Origin: Paraspadella gotoi
Taxonomy: Eukaryota > Animalia > Chaetognatha
Direction of reading: 5' to 3'
Assembly (NCBI GenBank): GCA_051294375.1
Contig: JBJCIZ010001666.1
Location: forward strand, 1-64,000
Length of the DNA stretch: 64,000 nt
Of the stretch, positions 3,988 through 45,296 are shown piece by piece. The notes under the pieces are model-generated. The model was not told where the DNA came from and made no database searches. It was given only the letters and a program-made list of their open reading frames with translations. Numbering within the stretch: position 1 is the stretch's first letter; each line of letters begins with the position of its first letter. Position numbers and translations under genes: made by a program.

Positions 3988-4461
3988 CCAGAAAATTTAA
4001 AAGATACTCATCATTTACTCCTAATAATTGACGACCTTATAAACGTGGTTCCTAGTTTATGGATCGAAGACTTATATTGTAAAATAGTTCATCATAGAAT
4101 GGTCAGCGCTATAACTACGATTCACAATATTTTCGAAAAATATCCCGTCTCCTTTCGAAAAATTTCTTTAAATACCAACTTCATTTTGATCACAAAGTTT
4201 ATACGCGACCGCTCAACCTATTTTAAATTGTCTCAACAATTTTCTCCTCAGTGTCCTAGCCTAATATACGAAGCTCATCAGAATTCTCAATATATAAACC
4301 CGCCTTACGGATATCTGTTATTAAATTTTCAACTTTCTTGCCCCGAGAAATTAAGAATAACCACTAATATTTTACCGGACGACCCGGGAGATCCGGTAGC
4401 TTACTTGGAGCGGCATGACGTCGAAAAGAGGAAAGGGTCGACGGGAAGGCGTGGATATTGA
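3988..4461 (+). pseudogene. Genome-packaging ATPase (A32/FtsK-like), C-terminal half only
   Basis: The frame upstream of ORF 4045 reads PENLKDTHHLLLIIDDL (Walker B), then VHHRMVSAITTIHNIF, RKISLNTNFILI, PYGYLLLN and LRITTNILP, as in Polinton ATPases. No Walker A; a stop precedes at 3985-3987. Confidence 0.88.
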
Positions 4462-4852
4462 GAGGGACGAGATGGCGAGAAGGCGGTTGGAGTCGAATTT
4501 ACCTGAAATGAAACATTTAAACGGGTTAAAATCCAAACATCAAAAAAATTTCATTCAATCCGCGAAATCTAAAAGCCTAATTTATACTCTGGCCGAAGTG
4601 GCTCATAATTTATTAGCTTCCAACATTAAAATTAATCAAGATTTAATAAATAAATTGAAACCCTATAAAAAGCAAATTCATCTACTATCTCTCAAATCGA
4701 TTTCTCTGAAAAAAAGAAGACATTTACTCAGACGAGGAAAGTTTTTAGGAACGTTACTATCCGTTCTTCTACCTTCTTTAATTACTTTATCCGTTGAATT
4801 GGCTACCAGAAATAAAAATAAAACTTCGACTCGACGACAACAAAAATCATGA
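4415..4852 (+). CDS. Conserved small basic Polinton protein (GasderminX-like candidate membrane-active virion protein)
   Basis: AEVAHNLLASNI...LKPYKKQIHLL...SLKKRRHLL.RGKFLGTLLSVLLP pattern with a C-terminal hydrophobic helix, typical of the ORF next to the ATPase in animal Polintons. Confidence 0.8.
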   Translation: MTSKRGKGRREGVDIERDEMARRRLESNLPEMKHLNGLKSKHQKNFIQSAKSKSLIYTLAEVAHNLLASNIKINQDLINKLKPYKKQIHLLSLKSISLKKRRHLLRRGKFLGTLLSVLLPSLITLSVELATRNKNKTSTRRQQKS

Positions 4853-5766
4853 ACGTTAATTTAAAAAAAAATGAAGACGTTCCACCGCCCATGAAATATC
4901 TAGAAAAACTTTATTTGGTTCCCGCTAATCAATATTTATCTAAATTTAAAGAAAATCGGGATGAAACGAAAAAAAAGGATTCTACCTTATTACCCACTAA
5001 CTTAAACGAATCGGGTCTTCAAGATGTCCCACCCGATGTTAAAATTAGAAAATTTAACGATGAATTTATGAGGAATAAAAAGTTAAGCGAGAATGAAACT
5101 TCTAAAGAATGGTCTCAGTTACATCAGAGAATTCATCCCATTATCCAAGATTTGAGAAAAAACACCGAAGAGCGAATTATAAATAAATATGATAAAATTA
5201 AATTGGATCCATACGAAGAAAAAATTTTAAAAATAATAGATGAAATTCCTCAAGTTCATCGCACCGATTCTGACATATATTTTAGAGGCAACTTGGTTGG
5301 CAAAACGAATGATATAATAGATCAATTAATTAGTTCTGGTTCTACTTCTCCATTCGACATTCACACTCAATTATTTTGGATAATTAATCACGGGAAAATT
5401 GATGCACCGTTATTGTCAACTAACGAAAAACCGGACGCCATCGCTGCCGCACCAACCACCCCGGCTTCAACTAAAAAAAAAACTGTGGTCCCACTTCGAA
5501 AAAATACGCCATCTGTTAAAACGCCTAAAACCTCTGGTGTCTCTAAAATAGAAAAAAAACCTGTCCCGGGTTCTCTCACCAACGCTTCTTCTCCATCACC
5601 TATAAAAAAGAAGAAGAAACCCGTGCCGCTTTCTGCCGTTTTACCCGGGGTAAAAACTAGACAACAACAACAACAACAACAAAAGAAAAAAAAACAGGGT
5701 GATGACGACGACAACGACAACGACGACCTTGCCCTCCCACCCGTCTATAAAGGAGTCTTCGACTGA
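4849..5766 (+). CDS. Uncharacterised Polinton protein with Lys/Pro-rich tail
   Basis: 305-aa ORF with ATGA overlap to the previous gene. The N-terminal KLYLVP...PPDVKIRKF motif resembles the usual pre-integrase Polinton ORF. Confidence 0.7.
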   Translation: MNVNLKKNEDVPPPMKYLEKLYLVPANQYLSKFKENRDETKKKDSTLLPTNLNESGLQDVPPDVKIRKFNDEFMRNKKLSENETSKEWSQLHQRIHPIIQDLRKNTEERIINKYDKIKLDPYEEKILKIIDEIPQVHRTDSDIYFRGNLVGKTNDIIDQLISSGSTSPFDIHTQLFWIINHGKIDAPLLSTNEKPDAIAAAPTTPASTKKKTVVPLRKNTPSVKTPKTSGVSKIEKKPVPGSLTNASSPSPIKKKKKPVPLSAVLPGVKTRQQQQQQQKKKKQGDDDDNDNDDLALPPVYKGVFD

Positions 5767-6911
5767 TGAAATTAAAGATTCAATTTTAAAAAACATATAT
5801 TATAGCCCGGATCACCCGGGTTCATTCGGGGGCATCGATAATTTATACAGATATGCCAAATTAAAAATACCCCGGTTAAAAAAAAAGGATGTTAAGGACT
5901 TTCTCTCAAAACAAAACACTCACACTTTATTTAAAAAATCGCGTGATCAACCTAAACATTATCAATCAACGAATAAATTGTTTTTAAATGAAATTTGGGC
6001 CGCTGACTTGGTAGACGTGGGGACCCTTAAACCATACGGGAAACCTTACACCTTTTTTCTTTCCATCGTTGATCAATTTAGTTTTTGTTACGCTCGCCCG
6101 CTGAAAAACAAAACTGGAGGCGAGGTTGCTGCCGCATTTCGATCGGTGTTTGAGGCAAATAATCACGTAACTTGCATGCGGATGCATCTTGATTCTGGCT
6201 CAGAATTGTTTAACAAAGAAGTTAAAGGGTTAATGGAAGAATATGAAATTGAAATGTATACGACTTCCACGAATAAAAAAAGTTATTTAATCGAAAATTG
6301 CTGTATAAAGTAAAAACTGTATAAAGCTTGTTACGCTTTAAAAAATTACAATTGGCCTAAAATTTTACCCTTGGTAATTATATCTTTAAACTTAAAAAAA
6401 CGAAAAGCTTTGGGATGGTTATCTCCTTTTCAAGCAACCTTACCCAAATTTGAATCGCTTCTCAGACAAAAATTTCAAAAAGATTTGCGTAAACACAAGA
6501 AAAAATTTAAAAATATCAAGTATAACATTGACAAGGGAGATTTGGTCAGAATAAAATTGCCGTCAAAACCCTTTAAAAGGGGTTACCATCAGACCTTTGA
6601 AAATGAGTCTCATTTGGTCAAGGATCATTACGGAACTCCGAGATTGTACATTTTAGAAGGGAAAAAAAAAATACTATTTGTGGCAACTGCAAAAGATAAG
6701 TAAACCACCGGAACAAAAAGAGGATTTTCATTCCGTGATTAAAACTAAAGTAATAAATAAAACTACTTTGAGATCGGGACGAAAAGTGGGGGGAACTAGG
6801 CTTTACTTAACGAAACCGGCCAACGAAGAAAAGGCTTATTGGTTAACCAAAAAGCAATTGGATAATCTTAAACATGTTAGAAACTACGCAAGTCCAGTTA
6901 ATGTCGACTGA
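5699..6911 (+). pseudogene. int: Retroviral-like (rve) integrase, split by frameshifts (~6300 and ~6680)
   Basis: IYYSPDHPGSFGGIDNLY, WAADLVD, VDQFS, MHLDSGSEL, KKSYLIE (DDE triad), followed by GDLVRI...FKRGY and a chromodomain-like tail in ORFs 6371-6703 and 6678-6911. Confidence 0.9.
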
Positions 6912-7845
6912 CTCAAACAAAAGATTTGAAAATACACATTCAGAATTTAGAAACGCCTTACCCGAACCCATAATTTTAAATAAGAATTATGAAGTAGCCT
7001 TGCTACAAATAAGCCTCATCAACTCATCTTTTAACATAGAAGAAGCATCGAGCGAATATCACAAAGTGATTATATTTGATTGGCTGTACGAAACTCAAAA
7101 TCCCATAATTCCACAACTGAAATTATACGGAGAAGTGTATAATTTTATCCTCCCTCCTGGTCATTACGACTCTCCAGAAATACTATGCGACACAATAAAT
7201 CAGGCAATTTGGAAATCTATTCCCAGATTAAAAGATCAACCGATTTTAGAATTTAACAAAATTAGTAGATACATATATTTTAACGTTACCGATAAGTATA
7301 TCACATTTAGATTGTACGGAGCCATGTTGTTTTTGCTCGGAGCCGTCGCGGACTTGGAAGATGACATTTTTTTTACTTTGGGTAAAGACAAAAGCCCCGG
7401 CATCGTGAGCTACGATTATCCCCTGTATGACAAAGACGGCGCCCCGATTTTAGACAAAGACGGTAAAATTCAAATGGAAAAAAGACTATTGCGAGACACC
7501 TTGCAATCGGTGATCTTGAAGAGCGACGCGGTCAAAACCGATCGATTTTTTTTCAATCCAAATATGAATTTTAATTCCGTTTTGGCGATTTATTGCTCCG
7601 AAGTGCAAATGTGGATCACCGGGAGTTCTTATTCTAATTTGTTAAGAACGGTTCAGATAGATGAAAAAAATTTGGGAGGGAGACAAGAATTCACGTTTAA
7701 AGAATTAATTTTTCATCCGGTTTCTAAATCATTTATCGACACGATTTCTATTTCAATTCGCGACATGCGCGGGAAAAATGCTGGGCTAAGGGCGGGGCCC
7801 ACCATCCTCACGCTCGGGTTTCGCCCAATCAGAAATAGTATATAA
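6874..7845 (+). CDS. Minor capsid protein (penton, single jelly roll)
   Basis: S.DS...FENTHSEFRNALPEPIILNKNYEVALLQIS, LPPGHYDSPEIL, IYCSEV...GSSYSNLLRTV, FHPVSKSFIDTISISIRD...LTLGFR. The ATG at 6901 is the likely start. Confidence 0.88.
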   Translation: MLETTQVQLMSTDSNKRFENTHSEFRNALPEPIILNKNYEVALLQISLINSSFNIEEASSEYHKVIIFDWLYETQNPIIPQLKLYGEVYNFILPPGHYDSPEILCDTINQAIWKSIPRLKDQPILEFNKISRYIYFNVTDKYITFRLYGAMLFLLGAVADLEDDIFFTLGKDKSPGIVSYDYPLYDKDGAPILDKDGKIQMEKRLLRDTLQSVILKSDAVKTDRFFFNPNMNFNSVLAIYCSEVQMWITGSSYSNLLRTVQIDEKNLGGRQEFTFKELIFHPVSKSFIDTISISIRDMRGKNAGLRAGPTILTLGFRPIRNSI

Positions 7846-7880
7846 ACAATCGATCAATCGACGATTCATCAATCGGTAAA

Positions 7881-8423
7881 ATGATTCACACGATTAAATT
7901 CCCATTCAAACATTTACCACCTTATCTCAATACCCACTCTACCCGTCCCCCCCCTCAATCTCATTTTTTAAACACGCAAAGGGGACAAGGGGCAATATCG
8001 GGAATATTTTCAAAGTTATTTAGATTTATTCGACCCCTAATCTCTCAAACTACCAAGGGAATCAAACCGGCTTTAAAACTAGCAAAACCCATAGCAAAAA
8101 GGGTTGCCGGGGATTTATTACAAGCTAGTTCATCGGCGGCGGTTGGTGGATTAACGGATCTTATTTCTAAGAAAGGGAAAGAACCTAAGGAATCTTTTAA
8201 GAAAGCGGTTGAGACGGGGAAAACTAACGTTAAGTCCGCTTTAAAAAGGGGGGCGGATAGTTTGATGGAGTCTCTGACTACTACCAAAGATAAACCTATA
8301 AAAGTAAAACGTTTAAAAAAATCTATCAATCAAAAGGGAAAAGGAAAGGGGAAAAAAACAAGGAAAAAAAAAAAGAAGAGAAAGAAAAAAATTAATCCTC
8401 GGTTAAAAATATTTTCAGTTTAA
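7881..8423 (+). CDS. Basic core / membrane-lytic virion protein (pVI/pVII-like analogue)
   Basis: QRGQG followed by the amphipathic AISGIFSKLFRFIRPL; a second QKGKG precedes a poly-Lys tail. Lies between the penton and hexon genes. Confidence 0.8.
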   Translation: MIHTIKFPFKHLPPYLNTHSTRPPPQSHFLNTQRGQGAISGIFSKLFRFIRPLISQTTKGIKPALKLAKPIAKRVAGDLLQASSSAAVGGLTDLISKKGKEPKESFKKAVETGKTNVKSALKRGADSLMESLTTTKDKPIKVKRLKKSINQKGKGKGKKTRKKKKKRKKKINPRLKIFSV

Positions 8424-8449
8424 AAAAAAAAAAAAATCTATCATACAAA

Positions 8450-9823
8450 ATGGCTGAGGACAAAATGGTTCGACCCCCGGGATATCCGGTCAATCAAGAG
8501 TGTATAACGCAAGGATTGGATTTATTTTCTCCTAGTTTGAAACAGTATGGGATAATAGGGACCAGAGTCGAGGCCATTTATTGTTCCACGCCGATCACGG
8601 AAAGTTCTTCGGTGATTTCTTTTGAAGTTTCTCCATCGTCGATGTACACGGATCTTTCTAGTATGGTGTATGAAATAGACTTGACCATAGTTAAGGCAAA
8701 TGGCTCGGATTTGGCGGACTTTGCTCCACCGGGAGCCGATCACTTTGGGAACAGCGTCGGGTTTGAAGATGGAATTGCTTCAACGATTTTTTCCGGATTG
8801 AGTTTTCGGGTTAACGGGGTCAATATTTGCGATTCTTTTAATACCTACGCCTACTTGTGTCATTTCATCAATACCTTGTACTATGGAAAAGATTTAAAAG
8901 ATAATAAACTGCGAATGCAAGGTTTTTTCGGAGACAGAGAATTTGATCAAACCGGGGCTCACGACGCGGCTCCCGCCTCATCGTTTAAAACGCGAGCTTC
9001 TTTAACGAGTGGGAGTAAAGTCATACGTTTGTATTCTAACATTCAAACGGCATTAACCACACAGGGCAAGTTTCTACCTCCAATGTCGACCCTTAATTTA
9101 GACTTCGTTAAGAGCAATTTCAATTTCTGCGTGAGAAGCGACGCAGAAAATGCGGAATCTAAATTTAAAATTTGTATTAAACAAATGAAACTTTTGGTTA
9201 GACGAATCGATGTGATTCCATCGCTGAAGATTTCGTTAGAGCAGGAAATAAATAGCAAAGGAGGAGTGTTATATGGTTCACAAATTATGAGCTGTCGACC
9301 ATACGTCATAAATCAAAATGCCAAGAGTGTGTTTTTTGATGGAATATTTTTTAACAATTTAAAACCCAACACCATAATAATCGCCTTGGTGACCCAAACT
9401 GCATTTTTGGGTTCGGCGAAAAAAAGCCCCTTCGAATTTGGGCATTTCGATCTCCAATCTCTCAAGTTAACCATCGATAACGTGGTTTTACCATTTCCTT
9501 CCGGATTAGAGAATTTAGATTATAAAAACAAAAAATATGAATCCGCTTATTGGACGTTGATCAATCAACATTTTAAGTACAACAGTCCTTGTCCAATTTC
9601 TTACGACGATTTCGCCAATGGATTAGCGATTTACGCCATAGAAACGGGTAGTTATAAAAGTTTCATGGATGATCACGACGAACCGCGTCAAACTTGTACT
9701 TCTAGATTAGAGCTGGGATTCACAAAAGATTCATCGAACCCCGCTCTCGTCCTTTTGCTCATGACCGCCTACAGCGGAAATATTTTCTTAAATTCATCCA
9801 GAGACATCTCCATGGACTATTAA
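8450..9823 (+). CDS. Major capsid protein (double jelly roll, hexon-like)
   Basis: Intact 457-aa ORF: LDLFSP, YTDLSS, QGKFLPP, PNTIIIALVTQTAFLGSAKKSPFEFGHFDL, ISYDDFANGLAIYAIE, ending RDISMDY. Confidence 0.92.
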   Translation: MAEDKMVRPPGYPVNQECITQGLDLFSPSLKQYGIIGTRVEAIYCSTPITESSSVISFEVSPSSMYTDLSSMVYEIDLTIVKANGSDLADFAPPGADHFGNSVGFEDGIASTIFSGLSFRVNGVNICDSFNTYAYLCHFINTLYYGKDLKDNKLRMQGFFGDREFDQTGAHDAAPASSFKTRASLTSGSKVIRLYSNIQTALTTQGKFLPPMSTLNLDFVKSNFNFCVRSDAENAESKFKICIKQMKLLVRRIDVIPSLKISLEQEINSKGGVLYGSQIMSCRPYVINQNAKSVFFDGIFFNNLKPNTIIIALVTQTAFLGSAKKSPFEFGHFDLQSLKLTIDNVVLPFPSGLENLDYKNKKYESAYWTLINQHFKYNSPCPISYDDFANGLAIYAIETGSYKSFMDDHDEPRQTCTSRLELGFTKDSSNPALVLLLMTAYSGNIFLNSSRDISMDY

Positions 9824-9845
9824 TTAATTCCATAATTAATTAATA

Positions 9846-10400
9846 ATGTATTCCTTAGCCATAGATAAAATTTTGGGAAACGATCATTTCGCTGGAAAAA
9901 TATTTTTGGGGAGTCATCCTAGCGACAATTTACCCACCCCCATTAGTCCAGTTTGCGCAATCACCGCCAACCATTCGTCTTCGGAATCCGAAGGGAGTCA
10001 TTGGAGCAGTTTTTACTTCACTCCGGACAAAGTCGTGTACTTTGATCCCGTTGGTTCATCTCCTCTGGTGAATCCCCGATTTGAAAAGTATTTAAAGGAC
10101 AACGTTCCCCCTTCTAAGCCCATTTACTTCAACAATTTTCAATTGCAAAACGATTATTCGGCGACTTGTGGAAATCATAATATTTTATTCGTTCTTTATT
10201 CCGCGCGAAATTATTCGTTAAAAGAAATTTTAGAAGAAGTATATGAAATAAAAGAGAAAAAACATTTAAAAAATCCTTGGTACTTTGACGCCTTAGCTTG
10301 GTCGGTGATCAGCGCCTTCGAAGCCGACCCCACCCCTTTGGTCAACGAAGAAGCCTTTTTTTTCCCCCATTTCATCGAACAACAACAACAAAAAAAATAA
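9846..10400 (+). CDS. Adenain-like cysteine maturation protease
   Basis: Catalytic signature GSHW / YFDPVG / QLQ / TCGNH in a 184-aa ORF directly after the major capsid gene. Confidence 0.92.
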   Translation: MYSLAIDKILGNDHFAGKIFLGSHPSDNLPTPISPVCAITANHSSSESEGSHWSSFYFTPDKVVYFDPVGSSPLVNPRFEKYLKDNVPPSKPIYFNNFQLQNDYSATCGNHNILFVLYSARNYSLKEILEEVYEIKEKKHLKNPWYFDALAWSVISAFEADPTPLVNEEAFFFPHFIEQQQQKK

Positions 10401-10454
10401 ATAAAAAGAAAAAAAAAGAGTATAAAAGAAGGAAGAAGAGAAGAAAAAAATATC

Positions 10455-10972
10455 ATGTCTCAAAGAGAAGCGGAAGAAGGAAGAGAGGAAAAAAAAATTT
10501 TTAATTTAATCGAGAACGAAGACTCGGATCCCGGAAGTAGCCTCCACGACTCCGCCAACGGTTCCAAAGACTCCGGCGTCTACTTATCCGATAGCGATGG
10601 TCAAGAGGAGGAGGCGAAGGAGGAGGAGGCGATCGCACCCAGGTGTTGTTCGTGCCCATGCGCTCGGTGTCAAGGGCAAGGGACGCCGCCGGGGTTGCGG
10701 CGAAAGAAGAATATCGAAATGATTGGTGGAAGTGGGGTAGCAAGTGGCGCCAAGAGACGCGGTCGAAGGAAGACCCGAGGTGCATCCACAATGGCCAAGG
10801 GATTAACGGATCTGATGGCCGCGAGTCCAATGGCTGTCCGTCCAATTTCGAAATTGGAGCTTTATCGGCGCAATTTGCGAACTTGAGCATCAACGACTAC
10901 TCTGACGACGACAACGACGACGATGTCAACGACGAAACCGCCCTTCCCACCATCACACCGGCCGAGAGATAA
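10455..10972 (+). CDS. Small acidic, Cys-containing accessory protein (probably one gene with a frameshift near 10690)
   Basis: Two overlapping ORFs (10455-10886, 10643-10972), each protein-like at one end; contains DSGVYLS and CCSCPCARC. Confidence 0.5.
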
Positions 10973-11187
10973 AGAAACTGGATCTGAAGAAGCGAGGAAG
11001 AGGACGAAGAAAATAAAAAAAATGACAAAACAAAGTGAAATTCCCCCTCTCTCAAAAAAAATAGTATAAAAGTTGGAGAAGATTCGCATCGAACTTATTT
11101 TTTATCTAAAAAAAATAAAATTTCTCTAAAAAAAAACAACAAAAAAAAACCCGAGTGCAAAAAATCATCATCATCATCATCATCATC

Positions 11188-12483
11188 ATGAGTTCCAACG
11201 GATTCTTTCCCTTGAGCCCGAGAACTAGGGTGATCACGACGAGTTCCTTGTACACCTATTTCATCACTTTTTTAAAAGATAATGGAATCGCTACTAAAGA
11301 CAAAGTAACGATAAATGTGGGAGAATGGAAAAACTTTGAATATCAAGCGAACGAAATCGAGCGGGACTTGCGCGAGTTGGAGATAATAATGTGGCAATGG
11401 CCATGCGCGGAGCCCAAAGTCCGATCCCTTTCCAATCGGTTGAAAATTGTGGTTCACGTCAATCATTTTCGAGGCAAGCTGACCCCGGCAATCACGTTCA
11501 GAAGTTGTCTGAACGAAAACATTCACAAAAACAACAACAACAACATTAATGCGAACGAAGGTCCCGCGCACCCGGTCGCCTCTTTGCAACTGGCGGTGAC
11601 CTTGGACGTGGACGAATTCAAGACCTTGAGGTTTTTCTCCAGCGTCATAACTCGTCACATATCCGAAAACGTGACGCAAAGCTTTTGCTGTCGCAAGGAA
11701 GATGTGGATTCGGTGATCGCGCGAGTGAATCAAATGGTTCATTGTTTCGTGAACGGAGGATCGGTTTTTGGGAGTCGACTAACGATCTCTTTGGTGAATC
11801 AAATTTTGCCCGTCCCGAACCTTATAAATTCTTCTTCTACTACTACTACTTGTAGTAATCTATCGCTGCTACCTCTCCCTCAACCCATGGAGACTCAAAT
11901 GCAAGAACAGTCACAGATTCAAGTTCAGCAGCAACAGCAGCAGCAGCAGCAGCAGCAAGAGCAATTTTATCAAAGATATCAAGATGCCTCGGTTAATATT
12001 ATTAATAATAATAATAAATTTGGTATCGATAACATCAACAAAATCGATAAGAAAAAGAAGAAGACCCAACCAACCGCAACGATCCCAACCGTACCTAATA
12101 GTTCTGCCGGCGTCGCTGCGGCTTCCGCATCCGAGGTCGTTGAAGCCGCCGGAAATGGAGGAGTCGTCAGGCGTAGGAAGAATTGTCCTCCGTCTCGGAA
12201 GAAGAAGCGCGTCGAGACTCGGACGAAGGAAGAAGAAGTTGACTTGGTGGGTGCCGCCGCAATAGCCGCCGAAATTGAAGAGGCGATGGAAGGAGTAGTG
12301 GGGAAGGGAGAGGGAGAGGGAGAAGGAGAAGGAGAAGGAGAAAAAGAGGTGGAGATGAAAGAGGATCCAGAAACTCAACCGATGATGGCCGAGTGGGAAG
12401 AGTTGATGGGTTCTTCGGGGATGAGGGAAAGTTTGGAAGCGGACAAGAATTCCACGACTAATAGAAATGGAACTTGCCGTTGA
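11188..12483 (+). CDS. Tandem PC4-like ssDNA-binding/coactivator-domain protein with poly-Q and acidic tail
   Basis: NGIATKDKVTINVGEWKNF...IERDL and VHVNHFRGK...AVTLDVDEFKTL resemble two PC4 (whirly-like) repeats; RKKKR NLS. Confidence 0.6.
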   Translation: MSSNGFFPLSPRTRVITTSSLYTYFITFLKDNGIATKDKVTINVGEWKNFEYQANEIERDLRELEIIMWQWPCAEPKVRSLSNRLKIVVHVNHFRGKLTPAITFRSCLNENIHKNNNNNINANEGPAHPVASLQLAVTLDVDEFKTLRFFSSVITRHISENVTQSFCCRKEDVDSVIARVNQMVHCFVNGGSVFGSRLTISLVNQILPVPNLINSSSTTTTCSNLSLLPLPQPMETQMQEQSQIQVQQQQQQQQQQQEQFYQRYQDASVNIINNNNKFGIDNINKIDKKKKKTQPTATIPTVPNSSAGVAAASASEVVEAAGNGGVVRRRKNCPPSRKKKRVETRTKEEEVDLVGAAAIAAEIEEAMEGVVGKGEGEGEGEGEGEKEVEMKEDPETQPMMAEWEELMGSSGMRESLEADKNSTTNRNGTCR

Positions 12484-12807
12484 AAATCTATTGAAGGACA
12501 TGTGAAAGGAGAGGGAGGGATGGGAAAAAAATTTAGTGAACATTTTGTTAAAAAAAAAATAATTATCGCAAAAAAAGTACTATCTACTATTCTAACTTCG
12601 GTTGGTAGAAGAAGGAATTTGTCTCTTTTTTTTTTTATTTCGCATTGATAATTGATATTAATAATAATAATAATATTGTTGTAAATAATTAAATGAAAAA
12701 TACAAAAAAAATCACAAGATAAATCCGATTTAAACATGTTTTTATTTTTCTTTCTAATAATAATAATAATAATAATAAGACAAAATGAAAAAAAACTAGA
12801 TAGTTAT

Positions 12808-14908: not shown

Positions 14909-14940
<32 letters not shown>

Positions 14941-16262: not shown

Positions 16263-16300
<38 letters not shown>

Positions 16301-19300
16301 GGAAGCAACGTCATTGGTTCAATCTCGATAACGTGACAGCATCTCAGCAGCAGCAGCAGCCGTATCAATAGGGAAAGGATTGTTCATTCATTCATTCATT
16401 CATTCATTCATTCATTCGATATCTTCTCACCTAAACGATGGTAGAGTCAAGAAGTGGCAAATATCTAATTGATATTGGTCGTAAGAGCATTGGCGAAACA
16501 TCTGAAACCCGCACTCGAGAAACAATGTGTCTAACGCGCAATAGAATAATGTGAAATTTGCAAGGTTCTTTAGTTGAAACTTTTCAAAAATTTCTAAAGC
16601 GTTTGAGTATGCCTCGTCCGAGATTTCTTTATTGGTAATACTATTGAAAAATGCTTCTTTGGGTGGGATTTTAGTTTCGTGGGCATTACTTAAACTGATG
16701 TAATCATAAAAGAACCCCATTTTCCCGGTGTTAATTATATTAAACAGTTTTTTGTCATATCCATTTTCTTCAAAAAAATTAAAAACTGAAGCGAAAACGT
16801 CTCTCGGATCTTTTTTTCCCTCACACTTGGTACAAAACTCGACCGGGTTATCTCCTTCGTATCGACACTCGGTGCACAAATACTCAAACGTATCCTTATT
16901 CGTTAAAGAAATTATGGCGTCCAAGCTGCTTGGAAGAAATTTATAAGTGTCAACGAACTTAGAACGACATATATTTTTGCAGTTGCATTCATCTTTCTCA
17001 ACCTCTCGAACTAATTGCTCCAATAAATCGCCTTCATATTCATCATCATCATCATCATCATCGCTACTCGAGCTGGTGTCATCTCCGTAAATGCTTTCAT
17101 CATCATCATCATCATCATCATCATCTTTCGATCCTCCTCCTTTGTTCTTCTTCTTCTTACTCAAATATTTATCTTGGCAATTGGAACAACGCCAAATAGT
17201 TTCAAAAGTTATCATTTCTTGAGAGCTTTTAGACAGAACGTTTATTAATTTTTTTAAGGCTCCTTGAGCATTATCATCGGCTAATCCTTGAATAATTAAA
17301 TGCTCATCAAATTTATCGAGGTTGTGTAAGTAGATCGGTATGGATTTACTCTCAAAGTATTTTAAATTACAAGACGAACAGCTTTTTCCCCTGTAGTTAG
17401 AAGGGGGGGGTAAGAAATGATCGTGATCTCTACATCCGGGGTCTGACTCGGTAAAAAGTTTATTGCAGATGAAACATCGAGTGGTCATTTGAAAATCTCT
17501 TTCATCCGCATCGGTCATGTGCAGAGGATACGGATTACCGAATAAAACTTGAAAAATTTTTTGCATTTCATCTCTCATCGCGATGCAAAAGTGTGTCGCT
17601 GCGTCTTTACCCCAATAATAACGGACTCTGTTAAATTCGGGATAGGAAAAGTTTGCCGAAACTATGTAAGAATAAGCGATAGGATACAATTCGCACTCTC
17701 GTTGGAGAGAGAGGTGAAGTTTGGAACAGGGCTTCAAAAAACTGCAGATTGTACACTTGGTCACGTGGCGAATATCATTCGAAGATTTGACCCATGGAAA
17801 CCTCGCCTTAATTTCATCGGGCACAGATTCTAAGCCAGGGTCTGGTTGAGGAGAAACAAACGCTTTGGTTCCTCTCTCGGTTTCAAAGTCGGCAAATACG
17901 AGAATTCGTCTATACAGTTTTGCTTCGAAGCGAGTAAAAGACAAAAAAGAGTTTTCGGGTGAAAAACGAATGGCTTGTTTGATCTCGTGTTCTCTACACA
18001 AACGTTTGTGTTTGGTTAGTAACTCTTGCTTCGTAAAACACATTAAGCAATAATAACAAACTGATACTTTTGATTTGTGACCACCGTAGTTAGAAGCAAC
18101 GAGACGAGAGAGATTTGTAATGGCAATTACGTGGCGAACTGTTTCATTATTTTTCAAGGGAAGTAATAAAAGATTAACGATGGTTATTCCATCATTTTCA
18201 ATTTTTGAAGAAATTTTATATGGAAAAAAAATCAATCTGCGACCAATTTTACTTTTTTTCTTCTTCTTTTTTTCATTATTTTCTTTCTTTCTTTTCTTAC
18301 TCTTTTTAGTGTATTGATAAATGTTAATTGCTAGCCAAGAATTTCGTTCCTCAATCTCAATTATGTCATCGATACTCAGTGGTCCGGTCAAATGACCCAC
18401 ATCTAAGGATGGTAAAAAACGAAAATAACTAGTTTTTCTGTTTTTATTAGATGAAACTTTAGTATGAAACAAGGCCGCTAATATCGAATACAAAACGCAG
18501 TTGTCTCTTTCGACAGTTTCAATAACATTAATCGTAGCCTTTTTAGTGGATATAATGGGATCTGTATTTTTAAAACAACCAATCAAGGTGCCTCGATTAG
18601 CTACCTTAATGATGGTCAAATCAGTTCTCAATATGGAGTCAAAAACTAAATTACTTCCCGATTCGACCTTATCTTGCGTCAAAATAGAGACTCGGCTCAA
18701 GGTTTTCTCCAAACTTTCGTTCAAGTCTGATCCTTGATACAACATTCGACTGGGATTATCAAAATAAAAACCCAAGTGAGTTACTTCGCCAGTACTAACA
18801 TTTGTTTTTCGAAAACGAATCAAAAATGTGAGATGGTATTTGATGGTTAGATATTTGTCCAAAAATTCTTTCAATAATATCTTTAACTGATTTCTTAAAT
18901 GATAAAGTTGAAATTCGTAATCTCCTAAAAAGTTAGATTTATCTTCATCTTCATCCTTAAATTTTAACTCAATGGTTTGAATAATATTTTTTTTAAACTT
19001 TTTAGATACGATATCAAAATACTCGGAAAATAATTTATCATCCTCTTTTTTCTCTCTCTCTTTCTCCCATAGTTCTTTCTTCTTCTTCTTTTCTTTTCCT
19101 TTCTCTTTCTCTTTCTCTTTATCTTTCTCTTTCTCCTCATTTTTTTTTTCAACCCTTTTCCCTTATCTTTATTTATCCCACTAACCCCTTTTCCTCGCTG
19201 AACGATCGATTTTTTAAATCCTGGTAAACCCCAAAACTGGGTCGAAGTCCCTTGACTCGCGCAGCTACTAATGCCCCCGCCGCAGCTGCTGCTGCTGTTA

Positions 19301-19527
19301 AAAATGCCGCTGTTCGATCCTTGGAATACGTCTGGTGAGATGTCTGCCGAGCTTTCGCTCGAATCGAATCTAGGAAAATCTTTTTGACTATAATCGAATA
19401 GTATATTTTGTTTTGTCGACAGATCGACCGGTCGATCTTCGTCGCCATTCTCTCCTTCCCCGATAGAGTCATTTTTCATTTTTGTTTTTTTCTTAACGCT
19501 TAAATCTAAAGGTTCATCGCCTTCCAT
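12808..19527 (-). CDS. polB: Full-length protein-primed DNA polymerase B copy 2, with vOTU-like and endonuclease-VII-like domains, interrupted by 10 spliceosomal introns
   Basis: Exons 19527-16431, 16239-16158, 16054-15930, 15804-15670, 15514-14949, 14707-14593, 14509-14413, 14336-14240, 14122-14025, 13923-13745, 13415-12808. Motifs ADFET, HNLDKFD, YCALD, SMLRGG, YWDFTNLYG, KLIVNSNYGK, FYDTDS, VGKMKDE, LKPKLYS, KAKGV, SLPYGH. Two apparent indels (A-run ~19140-19149; ~14670-14680). Confidence 0.93.
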
Positions 19528-19588
19528 GTTTTGTCTGTAATCATTAAAAAATTTCAAAATAATTTTAATGTTTTTTTATTTTTCATAA

Positions 19589-20467
19589 TTAACAATTTAT
19601 CTTGCTCTTTGTTTTAAAAGAAGAAGAAGGAGAAGGATTAAAGGGTGGAAATAAGTTAGTAAATTTTTTAACTTCCGATATACTTAACAATGAAGTAGTA
19701 TAGATTTTCTGCATATCATTTATTTCTTTATCATACATACTATAAATATGATTATTCATAGAAGCAAAACAATTCTCTATATCGATTAAATAATTATAAA
19801 ATTGAAAATATGTATCATCGTAAAAAGATTGAGCCATAAACCTCAAAGATTTGTTAAAAGTATAACTTATCAAAATTCGGTCAAGAATTATCTTAAAATG
19901 CCGCATTCTCGTTTGGTTTAATCGTAATGTTACAAAATTCATTTTCAAGACCTGAACCAAGTGTTTATTTAAATCTACATTATCGAAAGGAGGTTTTTCA
20001 TTTTTAAGCCTTTTAACCATCACCACGAATTGATGTTTCATTTGGTCAAAGTCAAAAAAGGAAGAGTTTTTCAGTTTCTGATATTCCTTTTCCAAGTGCA
20101 GTAGACCCATGATGAATTGGTTCACGTGAGGTAACACATCGCACATTACACAATTCGTTTCCTCGGAAGGAATCATCTTGCACGTGAGAAGGTCCAAGTA
20201 GCACGTTTGCATTATACCAAAAATCAGCATCAAATTTTCGCATAGCTTAAAAGTTGATTGAACCAACTTTTCGCACATTTCCCTTTTCTCAGAATCATCG
20301 TTCATTGATTGATGAAATGCCGTAATGTCCAAATCCATGGGCGTGACATTTTGAAACGAGGTCAACAAATTGGTATCATCATCATCATCATCATTATCAT
20401 CAATGATAGATTCATCAGTTGTTTTTTTTTAATTCTCAATCGTGGGATCGATTTCAATGTCACTCAT
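19589..20467 (-). CDS. Uncharacterised viral accessory protein
   Basis: 259-aa ORF 19589-20368, extendable to an ATG at 20467 across an indel in a homopolymer (~20422-20430). Helical, with a CVMC motif. Confidence 0.6.
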
Positions 20468-20551
20468 TTTATTTTTTTTAAATTTTAACCAAAAAACTAA
20501 ATCAAAATTATATATACAAATATATACATGTAAAAAAGTATCTTTATTTTT

Positions 20552-21370
20552 TTAAACATCGTTAGTAGAATCGATGGGTTCGGTATCGGAATGACCGCTT
20601 TCGCGACGGTGTCTTAAATATAACTCGGTTAAGCTCTCGGGATTAAAAAGAATCTTTTCTTTATTATCTTTAACGGTTAGAATTTGAGCCTTTAATAAAT
20701 CGTAGACCAAATCAAAATAATCTTGTTCATCAAAATCTCCAAGTGCGCAATCGCACAAAATTTCCCTCGTACACGATTTGTATTTAAATTGAGAAGAAAT
20801 ATTAAAATTTCTTTCCATGTCATTCGAAAACTTAATCTTTATTGTACTAAGTTTAATGTAATTTTCAATAGAAAAAAGTGATTGATAATGAGATAGAGAA
20901 AAAGTGTATTCGCTCAAAAAATGAGTGGTGTCTATTGAATAATAAAACGGGGTAGCTATAATATATTTTTGAAAAATATCACAGAGTCTTGATATTTCAC
21001 ACCCTATTTCAAATACGAGAGAAAACAATACTTTCTTTGGTTGAGCTCGATTATTATCATAATTATAAGTCCTAATCGCCTGATTAATAAAATCCATGTC
21101 AACGGTCAAAACGGGTTCGAGCATATCCAAACAACTCTTCAAATGATTAACGTCTAATTCTTCAAAATCAAAAACGGTAAAAAAGTCTTTCTTATAGGTT
21201 TTAATTAGTTTTTTCCTTTCGTAAGCCACTTCCTCCTCATTTCCTGGAATCGTCGTGAGTTCTTTCAGCTCGTCGATTTCGCTATAACGCCTATGCCTTT
21301 GTACAGTGTACTGACGAACTTGCATGTCTGTCACACATCCGCGATTGTTAATCTTTTCATCGTGAACCAA
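20552..21370 (-). CDS. Uncharacterised viral accessory protein
   Basis: 272-aa ORF in AT-rich sequence, same strand as its neighbours. The true start is probably further upstream (~21550) across a frameshift. Confidence 0.6.
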   Translation of the reverse strand: MVHDEKINNRGCVTDMQVRQYTVQRHRRYSEIDELKELTTIPGNEEEVAYERKKLIKTYKKDFFTVFDFEELDVNHLKSCLDMLEPVLTVDMDFINQAIRTYNYDNNRAQPKKVLFSLVFEIGCEISRLCDIFQKYIIATPFYYSIDTTHFLSEYTFSLSHYQSLFSIENYIKLSTIKIKFSNDMERNFNISSQFKYKSCTREILCDCALGDFDEQDYFDLVYDLLKAQILTVKDNKEKILFNPESLTELYLRHRRESGHSDTEPIDSTNDV

Positions 21371-21816
21371 TATGCTCCATTGATTTTGAACGCGTTCCGA
21401 AAGAGTCTCGACATGGGAAGGAAAGTCTTTACGAAATTCGGTTCACGTGTACTAAAAGTTCTAGTACTTGAAACATTTTTATTGATAAAAAGTTTCTTTC
21501 GATCCGTTGGTGACTAACGGAAAATCCACCGTTCGAAATTTCACCATTTTCGGCCATGTTTATGGTTTAATTCTAAAAAATTATAATGAATTTCATTGAT
21601 CAAAAATATAATTCAATTTTAATCAAACTCATAATTTATGATATCAAAGAAGTTAAATAATATTGCTAATGTTTAATTTATAATTAAAAAATTATTAATA
21701 ATCAATATTCCCAATAATCAATATTCCCAATACAAAAAATCAATGTATTTAATAATTAAGCTTTTTGTCTAATCATCATTTTTCCCAAATAACAAAAAGA
21801 TTGCTACAAAGCAATT

Positions 21817-22587
21817 TCATTTAACTCCTTTCACATTCTTTTTACAGTTCGCAACGAAAAAAAATCGAGAAGAGCGATTAACTCTGTCCTTGGTCAGAGA
21901 CAATCCGAAACAGACAGGCGAACAAAAGAACAAAGAGCTAGAATGGGTTTCGTAAACGTATGGTTTTATCTGCATGGTCGCCTTCGCGACGGCCGAGGTT
22001 TGCGGACGAAAGACGCTGATGGCATAAGCCAAATGACTCGAAATCGGGAACTTCATGCCGGATAAACTATCCACGTTATGCGCTAAACTTTCTTTCTTGT
22101 CAAAGTTAGATTTTAAATCCCCTTCGTCCCACATCTCGATCAACTTCCGGGCTTCTTCGTAAGATATGAACAGCTTCAATGGACCAGAAGCCTTCTGCAC
22201 GCGGTCGCTAGACCCCGCCCCGAAAAAGCGTTCCTTAGACACTTTAAAATATCCCTCGCCTCCTTTCTTGTGTTGAACAAAACAGTATTGAGACAAAGGT
22301 TTGATGATCGAACTATAAAAAAAATATAAAACAAAAACCTTACACTATCGTATCGCTAATCTAATTAATATCATTATGAGATACCTGATTCCTTGTACAC
22401 TCGAAATATCAAACGATTCTCCCGCGGTGCTAGGATGGTCATTTCTGTTTATAAATGAATATGCAAAAAACCCATCTTATTTGCATATTCTTTAAGAAAA
22501 ACGCTTGCGCAAAACCCTTCTCTTAAAAAAACCCCTCACCTCATTAATGACACTGGAGTGGAAACGCTTCTTTGACGAAGCATCTGA

Positions 22588-22618
<31 letters not shown>

Positions 22619-22885
22619 GATTCTGCTGTCCTCCCTCCGATTGAATTGACTCCATCCTCACGATCTCAAATTCCTCTTCCTCCACTTCTTCGGCCCTTCT
22701 TTTTTTTATGAAGAAAAACATTTTGTTTTAATCACAAATATTACTTATATTATTATTATTATTATTAATATTATATAATTAATTAATTGTATATAATTAT
22801 TTAGATTAATAAAAAAATTTAAAAATAAAGCTTTATCGAATCATTTTTTTTCTCACCTTTTGTTGCCATTTGGGGTTGCCATCAT
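21817..22885 (-). CDS. Spliced 4-exon gene (poly-Q N-terminus, possible PC4-like C-terminal domain)
   Basis: Exons 22885-22857 (MMATPNGNK), ~22699-22540, 22444-22385, 22312-21817 join in frame via phase-2 GT-AG introns. The PC4-like call is weak. Confidence 0.65.
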
Positions 22886-23414
22886 GTTTGATTGTATTCC
22901 GATTTTACTGAGTGCTTTTTAAACGCTGCTCCTTTCTTTCTTTTTGTCGTTGAATTATTTTATGTAACTTTTCCCTTAATTTAAAATTATATTGAAAGAC
23001 ATTTTAAAAATAAAAAACTATTTAACCTATCAATTATTTTTTTTAATTTTACAATACCTTAGTATTTTATTTTCCTCTTTCAAATTCCCGATAAGTTCGG
23101 AGCAATCCTCAACTTCGTGGTTAAGTATATAAAATTTATATATGTAAGTCCCACAATTCTCACAAAGTTTTTCAAAAGGAGACTTGCAAAGCGGGCAAAC
23201 TGGATAACTCTCAGAATATTTTTTTATTTGAATTACGCACTGATGACAATATAAATGACCTAAAATTAAATATAATTTTAATTCAACTTATTAATTTAAA
23301 AATATCATTTTTTGTAAGAATAAACTAACCTAAAACACAACCAATGCAACGTCTATCAGTCTTATTAAATTTATTTTTGCATACGTTACATATCCCAATA
23401 TAATCGGCGTTCAT
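22882..23414 (-). CDS. Spliced RING-finger protein, SIAH/Sina-like RING plus a second Zn finger (putative E3 ligase)
   Basis: MNADYIGICNVC...GCVL[intron 23329-23260]GHLYCHQC...CPLCK...CENCG...NHEVEDC, then intron 23057-22975. The stop TGA overlaps the next gene's ATG. Confidence 0.75.
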
Positions 23415-23465
23415 TATGCGAAACAAATTTCTCTTTTGTGGTCGCGCGTGAGAAATTCCATTCGG

Positions 23466-23472
23466 TTTTATA
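23466..23472 (-). promoter_or_regulatory. TATA box upstream of the RING gene
   Basis: TATAAAA on the minus strand ~50 bp upstream of the ATG at 23414, after a C-rich stretch. Confidence 0.45.
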
Positions 23473-24214
23473 CCCAAGGGATCCTAGGGGTCCGTTGAGG
23501 GGGGTGGGGGAGTAGAGGGGGGAAGAGGGAAATCTAATGTACTCAGGGTCGGTAAAAATAATCTCCAATTGTCAATCAAATAAATCAATCCTTTCAATGT
23601 CAAGTACATTAACAACAACAACAACAACGAAACAAAATATTTTTTCTGGGTGAAGATTACGATTTTTCTTAAAATCATAAAAAGATAAGAAGTCTCCAAG
23701 TTTTTTATATTATAATTTTAAATTTTCTTAACTTCAAGCAAATCTTTGTATCTCGTTTCATTATTCTCCTTTTGCTCTCTCTCTTTCGCGTCTCTCTTCA
23801 TTTTTTTTTCTACTTAAAGTTAGCCTTCGCCTTCGTTCCTTTACCTTACCTTTCTCTTTCTTCCTCTCTCTATCTTTCTTTCAAAAATGTATTTCTTTTT
23901 CTTTATTTCTCTCTTTTTCTCTTTCATTATAAATACTAAATCCCAATTAAACCCGAGTCGCGTTCATCACTGGACAACGCCCTTGAGAAGTAAGTTCGCA
24001 ACAGATTGTTATTCTCATACAGTATTACTCTTTTATGATTTTTCCGCAAATGTACGAGAAATACCAAAATTGTTTTTTTTCTTTTTCTTATCGTTAAAAA
24101 TAACAAGATGAAAGTCTATTCCATTGTTTTTACTTTCTCTTTTTTCCTCTTCCTCTTCCTCATCTACTCTTTCTTGATAACTAAAGTAAAACGAAAATTC
24201 ATAACCGGGTAAAA

Positions 24215-24550
24215 ATGGATTCCTCATCCGATAGCGATTATGGTTCTGACGACAATAACCAAAATAACTTCAACCCTAACCTTATTAACCCTAACCTTAT
24301 TAACCCTAACCCAACCCGCGCCCTTGTAGTATATAACCATTCGTGGTATATCAATAGAATCAATAATACCGCCTATTACCACGATCTATTTACCCCCACC
24401 ATTTTACCTATAACCTTCCCCGCCCATTTAGTCCAAATTAATTCCCATTTACTCCCATTTAACATCGCCCAGCAAATAATTTTCCCAACTTTCATAAACC
24501 CTCAACCCCACCACCATATCGCTATCAACCCATTCGAACCTATGGTTTAA
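24215..24550 (+). CDS. Small Asn/Pro-rich hypothetical protein
   Basis: 111-aa ORF with a good ATG context (aaaaATGG) and NPNLI repeats. Confidence 0.4.
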   Translation: MDSSSDSDYGSDDNNQNNFNPNLINPNLINPNPTRALVVYNHSWYINRINNTAYYHDLFTPTILPITFPAHLVQINSHLLPFNIAQQIIFPTFINPQPHHHIAINPFEPMV

Positions 24551-24554
24551 TTAG

Positions 24555-25609
24555 CGAAATGGGCGACGACGACGACGGCGGCAACGTGGACAAAGACGAA
24601 TGAAGTATCGAAGAATACGCCGGTGACGTCACAAACCACCTTCCATCGAACAACGTCACCGGCTAAATTCTCATTTTCGTCCACGGGGTCGGTGACGTCA
24701 GAGACCATTTTTATGTCATCACTGGCAACGACGTCACCGACCACCCCAAACAACATCCCGTCCTCCGTCTCGTCGTCCGTAATAGTCCGCCCATCCACGA
24801 ACGCGGTCTCAACCTCCTCCATCACGCCGGTGACGTCACAGACCTTTTCTCAATGGGCAACGACGTCACCGGTAAGCCCTTCCGTCTCATCCTCCGTGCC
24901 CTCCTCCGTCCCATCCTCAATGCCCTCCGTTCCATCCTCCGGTCCGTCATCCTCAATGCCCTCCGTTCCATCCTCCGGTCCGTCATCCTCAATGCCCTCT
25001 GTTCCATCCTCCGGTCCGTCATCCGTCCCGTCGTCTACAAATTCCCTCTCCTCCTCCTCCTCCATCGCGTCGGTGACGTCACGGACCTTATTCCCATGGG
25101 CGACGACGTCACCGGCGACCCTCATCTCCTCCCCTAAAAATTCTTCGGCGAGGTCATCATCATCATCGTCATCAACGTTTGAGACGTCGCCGATGTCAAT
25201 ACCATCTACATCGGCGACGTCACCGGGATCAAAGACGACGCCGTCCATGCCGATGACGTCACCAAAGGCGCCAACAACTGCGGTGACGTCAACGGCGTTG
25301 GCGGATCCAAGATCAAGTGATCAAAACAAGTAAAAAAAATTAATGTGAATATTTTATATTGTTAAATGTTATCATCATATTTCCGTTTTTCTAATTCAGT
25401 TTTTTTATTCTTTTTCATAGTTCAAATTGGATTTTGATGACAATTGGACTGGGAAATTTGTTAATTTTAGTTTTATTTTAATTTTCGTTATCGTTATTTT
25501 TAAAAAAGTTAAAAGTGTAAATTCAAATTCAAATGAGAGAAAAAAACTAAAGTCAACAAACATCACGAAGGAAGAAAGAAGAAAGATGCCGAAGCTCCCC
25601 CCCGTGTAA
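24555..25609 (+). CDS. Mucin-like Ser/Thr/Pro-rich type I membrane protein, spliced (5' end unresolved)
   Basis: TTSP/SSVPSSGP repeats (ORF 24623-25333), intron 25330-25420, then WILMTIGLGNLLILVL...IFVIVIFKK transmembrane segment (1-nt indel) and a basic tail. Confidence 0.6.
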
Positions 25610-26288
25610 ATATGTTCTCCCCATTTTTCCCCCAACCCAAAAAATTGGCCACGGTAAAAAACCCTGGATTAAGCCAAATCAATTTGTTCAACCAGAGAAA
25701 ATATTGAATTTTCAAATCTTTCCCAAGAATTAAATGAAAATGAAGATGACGATATGTACTTTTTGAATCACAACATTTTATATCAAAGTACATTATGTCA
25801 TCTTCTTTTTCATTTAATTCTTGGATATATTGAAAATTTATTTATTTTCCCTTTGTTGAACCAAATTTTAAGTTAATCTATGTTTTTTACGGTGGTCAAT
25901 TTTTTGGGTAATTGTATGTTCTCGTTCTGTTTTTTTTTATGTTCACTGCTATAAATGTTAATAATTATATTATTTCTCGTAGTCATAACAAAGGTGTTTA
26001 ATTCATTGTAAACAGTATCTACTGTAAATGTTAATCGAAATCCTCTGTTCATCATATGGAAAAATTCTCAGGGTAAAAATTCGTATTTGTACTTAAGTAT
26101 TATCAATGATTCGAATTCAAAAACGGTTACGTATTTTCAAAAAAAGATCAAAGTCCAATCTTTGTAATCTCAGATCGACCACTCGAGTTTGCCGAGTTTG
26201 AAATCAGAGAGGAGATAGCGACGGAGAATTAAAAGAGAGATAGAGATAGCGATAGAAATTAAGGGAATTAAAAAGGAAAGTGATCTAG

Positions 26289-27406
26289 TCCCCGTGTCGG
26301 TTTTGGATCAAGCTGCCAGTCCCCGTTCGAGGTTCTATGACAAACTGCAGACCCCGTTTTTTATTATCTCTTACCGGTAAGGAAAAGGAGAGATGCAATG
26401 TTTAAAAATAAATTATATTTAATGCATTAAAAAATAATGTTTCATTTCTTTTTCAGAGCAATTACCTTTGACGAAGAAGCCAAAGAAGGGAAAGAAGGGG
26501 AAGAAGGAGAAGGAAGCGGAGGCCCGGGCGGAGACGACAACAACAACGAGGACGGTGACGACGAAAGAAGCAGCAGCTGTCTTTCGACCTGCAGTTGCAG
26601 AGCGGTCAAAGTAAGTTTTCAAATGATATGAATTCAATGCAAAAACAAAAAACAAAAAAACAAAACAAAACAAAAACTCGAACATTTCTTGCTCCTTTCC
26701 TAGTTCAACACTTATTATGAGTGTTGCTATTGCAACGACCGAAACTTCCTTCTTTTCGCCCTCACCTTCCTCTTCATCGGCGTCGTACTCGCCGTCTCCA
26801 TCTGTCTCGAGCAGTGTCGAGACTTCGGTTGCCAGTAGTTTCAAGTAAGATTTAAAATTGATTAATTGATTGATTGATTGATTGGTTAATTTAAAAATTG
26901 ATGAAAAATTATTTTTTCTCTTTCTCGTCCATTTCAGCATTGGCATTGGTATTGGCATTGCGGCAGCGGTCGGCCTCCTCTTCGTCCTCGTCCTCGGCGT
27001 CGTTCGGTGCTGCGCCAAGCGTCGACGTCGTCAAACGCGGTGCCACAACTCGGACGAGGAAACGGGGATGGAGGATTTGACCTGCAGCCCCAACGCCATT
27101 CCATTGCAGGGGTTGAGGAGAGGGCGCGGAGGAGAGGAAGAGGAAGCGGAACCGGCAACGGCGGAAACGATGCTGTCGCGCCCGCCAACCAGGAGGAGAA
27201 GGGCGAGGTTGGGATCCTCATCGAATCTCGATCCCGCCAGCGTCGTGGGGATTTTGGAGGAGAGGCTGGAGGGGATGAGGATGTCGGAGTTGGTGAGGAG
27301 AGAGGAGGAGGAAGATGAGTGGGAGACGATGGAAGGGAGGAGAAGCGGGACGGCGGCGGAAGCGGCTGCAGAGGCAAGGGAGTGGGCGGCTGAGGCAGAG
27401 ACGGTG
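26289..27406 (+). CDS. Second spliced type I membrane protein with S/T-rich stalk; both ends unresolved
   Basis: Introns 26377-26456, 26611-26703 and 26845-26937 join in frame to the TM IGIGIGIAAAVGLLFVLVLGVV-RCCAKRRRR and an acidic cytoplasmic tail running into the gap. Confidence 0.7.

Positions 27407-45265: not shown

Positions 45266-45296
<31 letters not shown>

Follow-up and report, generated by a model that had tools for sequence, protein, structure and literature searches.

Gene content of the element

We analysed the first 64,000 nucleotides (nt) of contig JBJCIZ010001666.1 from the chaetognath Paraspadella gotoi, the whole of this stretch being referred to below as the window. On gene content, positions 3988-27406 are assigned to a Polinton/Maverick-type (adintovirus) provirus, in which predicted introns fall within the polymerase gene, pPolB-2, and within accessory genes. 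The hallmark genes of Polintons are present, as detected by Pfam, profile or blastp searches: pPolB, RVE integrase, ATPase, cysteine protease, and the major and minor capsid proteins. On the forward strand, a truncated ATPase, a GasderminX-like open reading frame (ORF), a 305-codon ORF, integrase, penton, core, hexon and protease are arranged in the order found on viral contig L001, and are followed by a small ORF and then a 431-codon ORF. Convergent to these, pPolB-2 and four accessory genes occupy the reverse strand, beyond which two genes for mucin-like membrane proteins return to the forward strand and reach an assembly gap (N gap). This copy is judged defective from its sequence, its left end having been replaced and its integrase broken. 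No terminal repeats or target-site duplication were found in the window, the left end being replaced at 3986 and the right end lying within the N gap; a 58-nt inverted match between 1688-1745 and 26204-26260, seen in self-comparison, is too faint to count as one. The predicted genes and features are as follows.

3988-4461, +: packaging ATPase, C-terminal part only (5′-truncated); blastp to the L001 ATPase, E 9e-21; profile E 1e-9; no intron
4415-4852, +: GasderminX-like ORF (label taken from the preliminary description of this sequence and PMC8502044); 36% to the same-position L001 ORF; profile E 1e-14; no intron
4849-5766, +: 305-codon ORF, single; takes the place of the L001 PW-type gene by position only, the similarity not being significant; no intron
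5766-6900, +: RVE integrase, no intron; frame broken near 6313 and again near 6670; profile E 6e-36 and 2e-12; PF00665 match below cut-off (E 7e-7)
6874-7845, +: penton (minor capsid), one ORF with a variable loop; locus-derived profile E 1e-10
7881-8423, +: basic core-like ORF, single; position as in L001; no intron
8450-9823, +: major capsid protein (hexon); one ORF covers positions 8-435 of the 437 in the profile, E 2e-74; no intron
9846-10400, +: cysteine protease; profile E 4e-23; PF00770 weak, E 0.018; no intron
10455-10886, +: small acidic ORF with a Cys cluster, probably non-virion; no Pfam match; no intron
11188-12483, +: 431-codon ORF, single; convergent to pPolB-2 across 325 nt; no intron
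12808-19526, −: pPolB-2; exon 1 of about 3.1 kb with a frame break near 19160; ten introns; two frame breaks in exon 6; PF03175 on exon 5; exon chain with X at junctions, profile E 3e-184
19589-20466, −: accessory ORF, 279 codons; frame break near the start; no significant Pfam match; no intron found
20552-21556, −: accessory ORF, 296 codons; frame break near the start; no significant Pfam match; no intron found
21817-22885, −: gene of unknown type, in-frame exon chain; introns 22856-22699, 22539-22445 and 22384-22313
22904-23414, −: RING-finger gene, in-frame chain; weak RING matches of exon 2 below cut-off; introns 23329-23260 and 23057-22975
23887-25483, +: mucin-like protein with a predicted signal peptide and a hydrophobic tail (by eye), in-frame chain; introns 23990-24554 and 25330-25420
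25635-25909: imperfect palindrome of 275 nt, flanked by the membrane-protein genes; 77% in self-blastn (284 columns)
26337-27406, +: mucin-like membrane protein, in-frame chain with three GTAAG donors; introns 26377-26456, 26611-26703 and 26845-26937; start uncertain; runs into the N gap

Predicted introns in the element and in related polymerases

Analysis of pPolB-2 revealed ten predicted GT-AG introns of 76-329 nt, at the following positions.

16430-16240, 16157-16055, 15929-15805, 15669-15515, 14948-14708, −: pPolB-2 introns 1-5
14592-14510, 14412-14337, 14239-14123, 14024-13924, 13744-13416, −: pPolB-2 introns 6-10

Each exon was translated separately, with X placed at the junctions, and aligned to homologues. 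The exons flanking introns 1-8 align to intronless homologues with no intron-size gap at the junctions (seven of the twenty homologues were displayed), with offsets of 0-3 residues at introns 2, 7 and 8, and with intron 4 adjoining a variable loop. These eight introns map to profile columns 655-1017 of 1127; one lies in the flank of polymerase motif A and another within the DTD motif, and the polymerase motifs are preserved across the splice junctions. Introns 9 and 10 lie inside an insert absent from the homologues, where frame continuity is their sole support. Gap-free alignment requires CGAG acceptors for the introns ending at 15805 and 14708 (−). In most eukaryotes, acceptors of the GAG type are rare; a further CGAG candidate, the third, was noticed by eye near 42.75 kb (−), and the use of such acceptors may be a host trait. 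None of 36 candidates proved to be an exon-sized relative of pPolB-2 exon 5. All ten introns are crowded into 2.1 kb in the catalytic half of the gene, and the first 3.1 kb has none (P 1e-4, uniform placement), as had been stated for approximately the first 3 kb in the preliminary description of this sequence.

Ten further introns join the exons of four accessory genes in frame and without stops: three in the 21.8-22.9 kb gene, two in the RING gene, two in the first membrane-protein gene and three in the second. The earlier count of about 19 is thereby retained for every gene except the first membrane-protein gene, which has two introns rather than one, bringing the total to 20. The accessory introns are AT-rich, each having a lower GC content than the adjacent larger exons (0.11-0.33 in the introns of the 21817-22885 gene versus 0.44-0.45 in its exons). 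Among all 20, the median length is 98 nt and 14 donors conform to GTRAG. Matches between them are short, AT-rich or microsatellite in character, and at most 54 nt long; because the 20 introns have no common sequence, there is no sign of an introner burst, and an introner origin, in which the introns would be copies of one repeat, is ruled out. GC content at third codon positions (GC3) is higher in short exons (0.49-0.64; 95-260 codons) than in long exons (0.35-0.36), a contrast that, on these small numbers, is host-like in its composition. The 20 introns look real and are predicted to be spliceosomal introns of host type. In the first mucin-like gene, intron 1 (565 nt) also contains a 121-codon open frame (24185-24550, +), which may be an alternative exon or a gene nested in the intron.

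The eight virion-module genes, a set that combines particle-building and integration functions, contain no introns. The GasderminX-like, penton, core, hexon and protease genes are single ORFs, and the interruptions of the integrase are frame breaks rather than introns, the one near 6313 being covered by identical DNA contigs in two runs (X1 and X2, described below); the earlier statement that these six genes lack introns is therefore borne out. Within the variable loop of the penton gene, an in-frame 72-nt GT..AG stretch (7382-7453), found by eye, is a candidate intron, although it is GC-rich and has neither a pyrimidine tract nor a stop. Across the element, the introns are confined to two blocks, one at 13.4-16.4 kb and the other at 22.3-26.9 kb. 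If introns were placed uniformly over the 17,955 coding nt, a virion module of 6,316 nt would receive none of the 20 with a probability of 1.7e-4; the same calculation for 6,696 nt of intron-free non-virion sequence, a region chosen post hoc, gives 3.6e-8, indicating that the introns cluster in two blocks and that the uniform null is wrong. By gene, introns occur in 0/8 virion genes versus 5/9 others (Fisher P 0.029). The split follows blocks, and not strictly functional class. Splice-site avoidance in virion genes was also considered and rejected, since it appears strong by base composition and disappears against 1000 synonymous shuffles.

Polymerases of other loci were obtained from metagenome contigs, which were scanned for a motif of the exonuclease region; the scan gave at least 599 pattern matches, of which at least 352 were confirmed and the best 80 kept. 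Twenty of the 80 loci, those with larger gaps, were inspected for introns. One ambiguous locus (L070) was left out of the count, as were gaps without GT-AG ends in L019, L037, L043, L052, L054, L064, L069, L071, L074 and L087, together with a single such gap in L012 and another in L063; the long gap in L038 is a chaining artefact. GT-AG introns in pPolB were found in 9 of the best 80 metagenome loci (L012, L024, L038, L039, L051, L053, L063, L084 and L088), amounting to 13 introns at 11 sites; none was found in 9 loci from the viral collection. Nine of the 11 sites lie past profile column 658, a region that accounts for 43% of covered positions (P 0.011), and two are in the N-terminal half. 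In a midpoint-rooted polymerase tree of 73 loci with enough coverage and 18 other sequences, the intron-bearing polymerases are scattered. Sister elements have an intron site in common in three cases: P0021 and L024 (63% identical, from the protein tail), L012 and L053 (83%), and L038 and L051. The preliminary description had argued against random intron gain after integration, and this view gains support from the precision of the introns, their lack of a common sequence, the preservation of motifs across junctions and the occurrence of common sites in diverged sister elements. In L012 and L053 the site has been kept and the intron sequence has not, and L028 (at 2990) is exactly without the intron of L012 (2776-2820) and L053 (5011-5065), the elements being 83-86% identical; L028 compared with L012 and L053 thus represents a compact natural series for intron gain.

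No frame-breaking introns were detected in 90 other core genes of 89 loci, compared with 3.3 expected (P 0.035, or 0.059 on the 11 distinct sites). These genes comprise 34 integrase, 21 ATPase, 11 protease, 11 penton, 4 GasderminX-like and 9 capsid genes, covering 20,548 profile positions; the comparison is weak, as the loci are partly duplicates and 20 open in-frame insertions of at least 13 residues occur among the genes counted. One of the loci, a Polinton, carries two tandem major-capsid-like genes (L017:9827-12435).

The window contains a second polymerase gene fragment, to the left of the element.

2140-3986, −: pPolB-1, 5′-truncated polymerase fragment with frame breaks, intronless; PF03175 E 4.7e-16; continuous tblastn match over the catalytic half
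3986-3988: breakpoint between pPolB-1 and the truncated ATPase, which replaces the left end of the element; loose contig ends at 3986 in 4/4 runs

Because pPolB-1 is intronless over the same catalytic region and lies head-to-head with the ATPase, it could conceivably be the true partner of the virion module. DNA contigs from four runs (X1, X2, X5 and X6) of two studies were compared over positions 1900-8300. Identical contigs cross 3986 by only 30 and 23 letters, below the 31-letter bridging rule. Contigs of pPolB-1 continue past 3986 into other sequence, which is polymerase-like by eye, and a diverged contig of the virion module continues past it for 225 different letters. Summed depth on the pPolB-1 side versus the virion side was 335-1516 versus 13-80 in X1, 3037-23593 versus 69-746 in X2, 105-320 versus 9-30 in X5 and 78-347 versus 1-32 in X6; the step occurs at the same place in every run, and summed contig depth is not equivalent to copy number. 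An assignment of the virion module to pPolB-1 is disfavoured by the depth step together with the break at 3986; pPolB-1 is only 23% identical to pPolB-2 and, judged from these contigs, is a separate, more abundant Polinton family joined to the element at 3986. Since it belongs to another family, the absence of introns from pPolB-1 does not explain the partition away. A second copy of the virion module, approximately 85-90% alike, has no intron-size insertion over 3986-7046 (X5) and 7477-8265 (X6).

Proposed transcription from the integrated copy and other readings

We estimate a probability of roughly 0.5 that the locus represents a single integrated Polinton/Maverick provirus and that its introns arose and persisted in those genes which host RNA polymerase II transcribes from the integrated copy. 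The ancestral state would have been free of introns, which would have been acquired singly while the lineage was still under selection. Messages for the polymerase and the cargo would be spliced in a normal host nucleus, in a latent or early phase, and the virion module, being expressed late or seldom, would neither gain nor need introns. The intron boundary would then track transcription blocks rather than functional class. This transcription logic does not itself explain why introns strike only the catalytic half of pPolB, as a splicing switch would.

Several observations weigh against this proposal. No intron is modelled in four non-virion ORFs (10455-10886, 11188-12483, 19589-20466 and 20552-21556; 3.6 kb) or in the 3.1 kb of pPolB-2 exon 1, an absence that a rule by which early genes gain introns does not predict; the sharp partition by functional class claimed in the preliminary description is consequently not confirmed. 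Donor motifs are not depleted in the virion ORFs (2 observed versus 2.9 expected from the synonymous shuffles). The programme of early spliced and late unspliced expression put forward there is no more than a possibility; it retains the argument against random gain, and is weakened by the intronless non-virion ORFs and by these donor counts. The intron-bearing loci held no capsid or penton gene, and the comparison with them therefore rests on six other core genes in three such loci. Capsid introns in homologues, which the preliminary description had named as a refutation, are hinted at by P0161, one of 152 capsid proteins in a sample that favours full-length proteins (10/152 are partial), whose tail ends as intron read-through would. 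Finally, the link between pPolB-2 and the virion module rests on layout and one assembly.

That link bears on a reading we regard as improbable, in which the locus is a chimera and an intronless virion module meets an older, intron-rich polymerase arm of a different element at 12.5-12.8 kb. Several Polinton families occur in the window, a join is proven at 3986, neither terminal repeats nor a target-site duplication can be seen, and pPolB-2 sits on a very long branch. The meeting point, however, is a tight 325-nt convergent spacer without repeat or remnant, the GC3 of pPolB-2 exon 1 (0.35) is within the virion range of 0.31-0.43, and 78-89% of the words of 8400-17000 are present in four runs, so that both sides occur in near-identical form. 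A convergent layout is also common: the polymerase faces the integrase in 19/34, the capsid gene in 3/9 and the protease in 4/11 of the fetched loci with these genes, and an arrangement in which it faces the other core genes is given as the rule for vertebrate Mavericks in PMC8097293. The division of the two halves between separate elements, which the preliminary description had named as fatal to its proposal, is disfavoured, since the intronless pPolB-1 belongs to a separate family and a pPolB facing the virion module is a common layout.

Tentatively, and with less than even odds by some distance, the distribution might instead combine two unrelated effects and no expression programme, the terminal genes being host-captured cargo with their own introns and the polymerase introns having local causes, such as a long gene and conserved Lys and Gly codons that offer AG/G sites. 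Intron-bearing cargo is found next to intronless core genes in nematode Mavericks (10.1101/2022.07.12.499685), and 5 kb of intron-free non-virion sequence separates the two intron blocks here; yet host likeness of the cargo is limited to the weak RING matches, and both the crowding of ten introns into one part of pPolB-2 and the preference for the same half at 9 of 11 sites elsewhere are left unexplained. These positional biases would be expected of a splicing switch, which we nevertheless hold to be quite improbable. In pPolB-2, the introns all come after the part of the gene for the terminal-protein, vOTU and exonuclease domains; an unspliced message would stop in intron 1 and yield a primer protein without a catalytic domain, and full splicing would yield the polymerase. 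Consistent with this, the frame of exon 1 (ORF 16427-19162) is closed by a stop codon at the first donor, and intron 1, at profile column 655, precedes the polymerase motifs, the domain order being TP-vOTU-EXO-PALM in PMC11161782, with TP (terminal protein) and vOTU only putative in pPolB-2. One intron would be enough for such a switch, however, and ten are unneeded; the donor and pyrimidine tract of intron 1 are ordinary; and the sites in other elements vary widely, two of them being N-terminal. It is similarly doubtful that animal Polintons have repeatedly evolved a host-splicing gate on replication, with introns only behind the terminal-protein/exonuclease region of pPolB, the spliceosome choosing between primer protein and full polymerase, and a splicing-independent virion module. 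Such a gate, if true, would represent an adenovirus-like early/late logic that has arisen many times in intron-bearing Polinton diversity discarded as dead by ORF-based surveys.

The proposal of transcription from the integrated copy can be set beside known systems. Animal Polintons/Mavericks (adintoviruses; PMC8502044, PMC8097293) likewise have pPolB, RVE integrase, ATPase, protease, capsids, accessory genes upstream of PolB and convergent modules. The genes of intact vertebrate elements are reported to lack introns (PMC8097293), whereas the present element has ten in its polymerase and none in its other core genes. Nematode Mavericks (10.1101/2022.07.12.499685) resemble it in combining intronless virion and integrase genes with a terminal region of a few kb that contains intron-bearing, GC-richer genes, but their polymerase is intronless and their cargo is a protease or kinase rather than RING and mucin-like membrane proteins. 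In the punuivirus, a giant endogenous virus of Chlamydomonas (10.64898/2026.10.09.758095), spliceosomal introns are enriched in one module, that of the latency genes, and virion genes occupy another; the likeness is by inference, and consists in virion genes standing outside the intron-bearing set, as in the 0/8 versus 5/9 split described above. That enrichment is also partial (9/61 intron genes in the early cluster), and the punuivirus, in which RNA bears out the transcription logic proposed here, differs in being a 617-kb nucleocytovirus with RNA, N6-methyladenine (6mA) and promoter evidence, in contrast to a 23-kb Polinton known from sequence alone. Introns also occur within integrated Polinton-type elements in introner-invaded dinoflagellate eupolintoviruses (PMC12166617), but introners are repeat copies that mostly postdate integration and for the most part lie outside coding sequence, unlike the 20 introns considered here.

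Full-text searches turned up no account of spliceosomal introns in the polymerase of an animal Polinton, although the supplementary genome maps of PMC8502044, Repbase and the original 2006-2007 papers could hold spliced annotations. Intronless ORFs have served as the criterion for calling Polintons intact or dead (PMC8097293), and viral genes have been stated to have no introns (PMC9356565). With real-looking introns in approximately one-tenth of the sampled pPolB loci, and ten in pPolB-2, such lineages would be overlooked or misclassified in surveys based on ORFs. An intron-rich polymerase beside a complete intronless virion block would also make two ideas testable, namely that latent and virion programmes are separate and that introns are gained where the integrated copy is transcribed.

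Other features of the genes and the window

The capsid profile has 14,215 relatives, and no PDB sequence matched the major capsid protein at E 1. A PC4 identity for the 431-codon ORF, suggested by a likeness seen by eye, was abandoned, as it is unsupported by Pfam and profile searches; predicted folds of this ORF and of an exon of the 21.8-kb gene were uninformative (predicted local distance difference test scores of 34-35). The N-terminal frame of pPolB-2 (19250-19526, −) contains two PxDLS motifs, which we take to be the CtBP-binding motif of adenovirus E1A, and no LxCxE motif was present in the nine ORFs scanned. The palindrome at 25635-25909 is possibly a miniature inverted-repeat transposable element or a hairpin.

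Outside the element, none of 10 flanking ORFs tested gave an informative Pfam match. A degraded capsid gene of another Polinton family (44800-46710; profile E 3e-4 and 0.05) lies inside a large inverted duplication (~42.7-45.2 versus 46.0-48.9 kb). An unknown ORF region is present in three copies (28366-29600, 38200-39400 and 41500-42660), of which the 42-kb copy has many small indels and resembles noisy gap-fill sequence. Two related, inverted and decayed elements, at 29880-33800 and 55100-58200, appear BEL/Pao-like by eye and have no Pfam support, and an array of an AT-rich repeat of ~49 nt, with a 1093-nt higher-order duplication, occupies 49300-51350.

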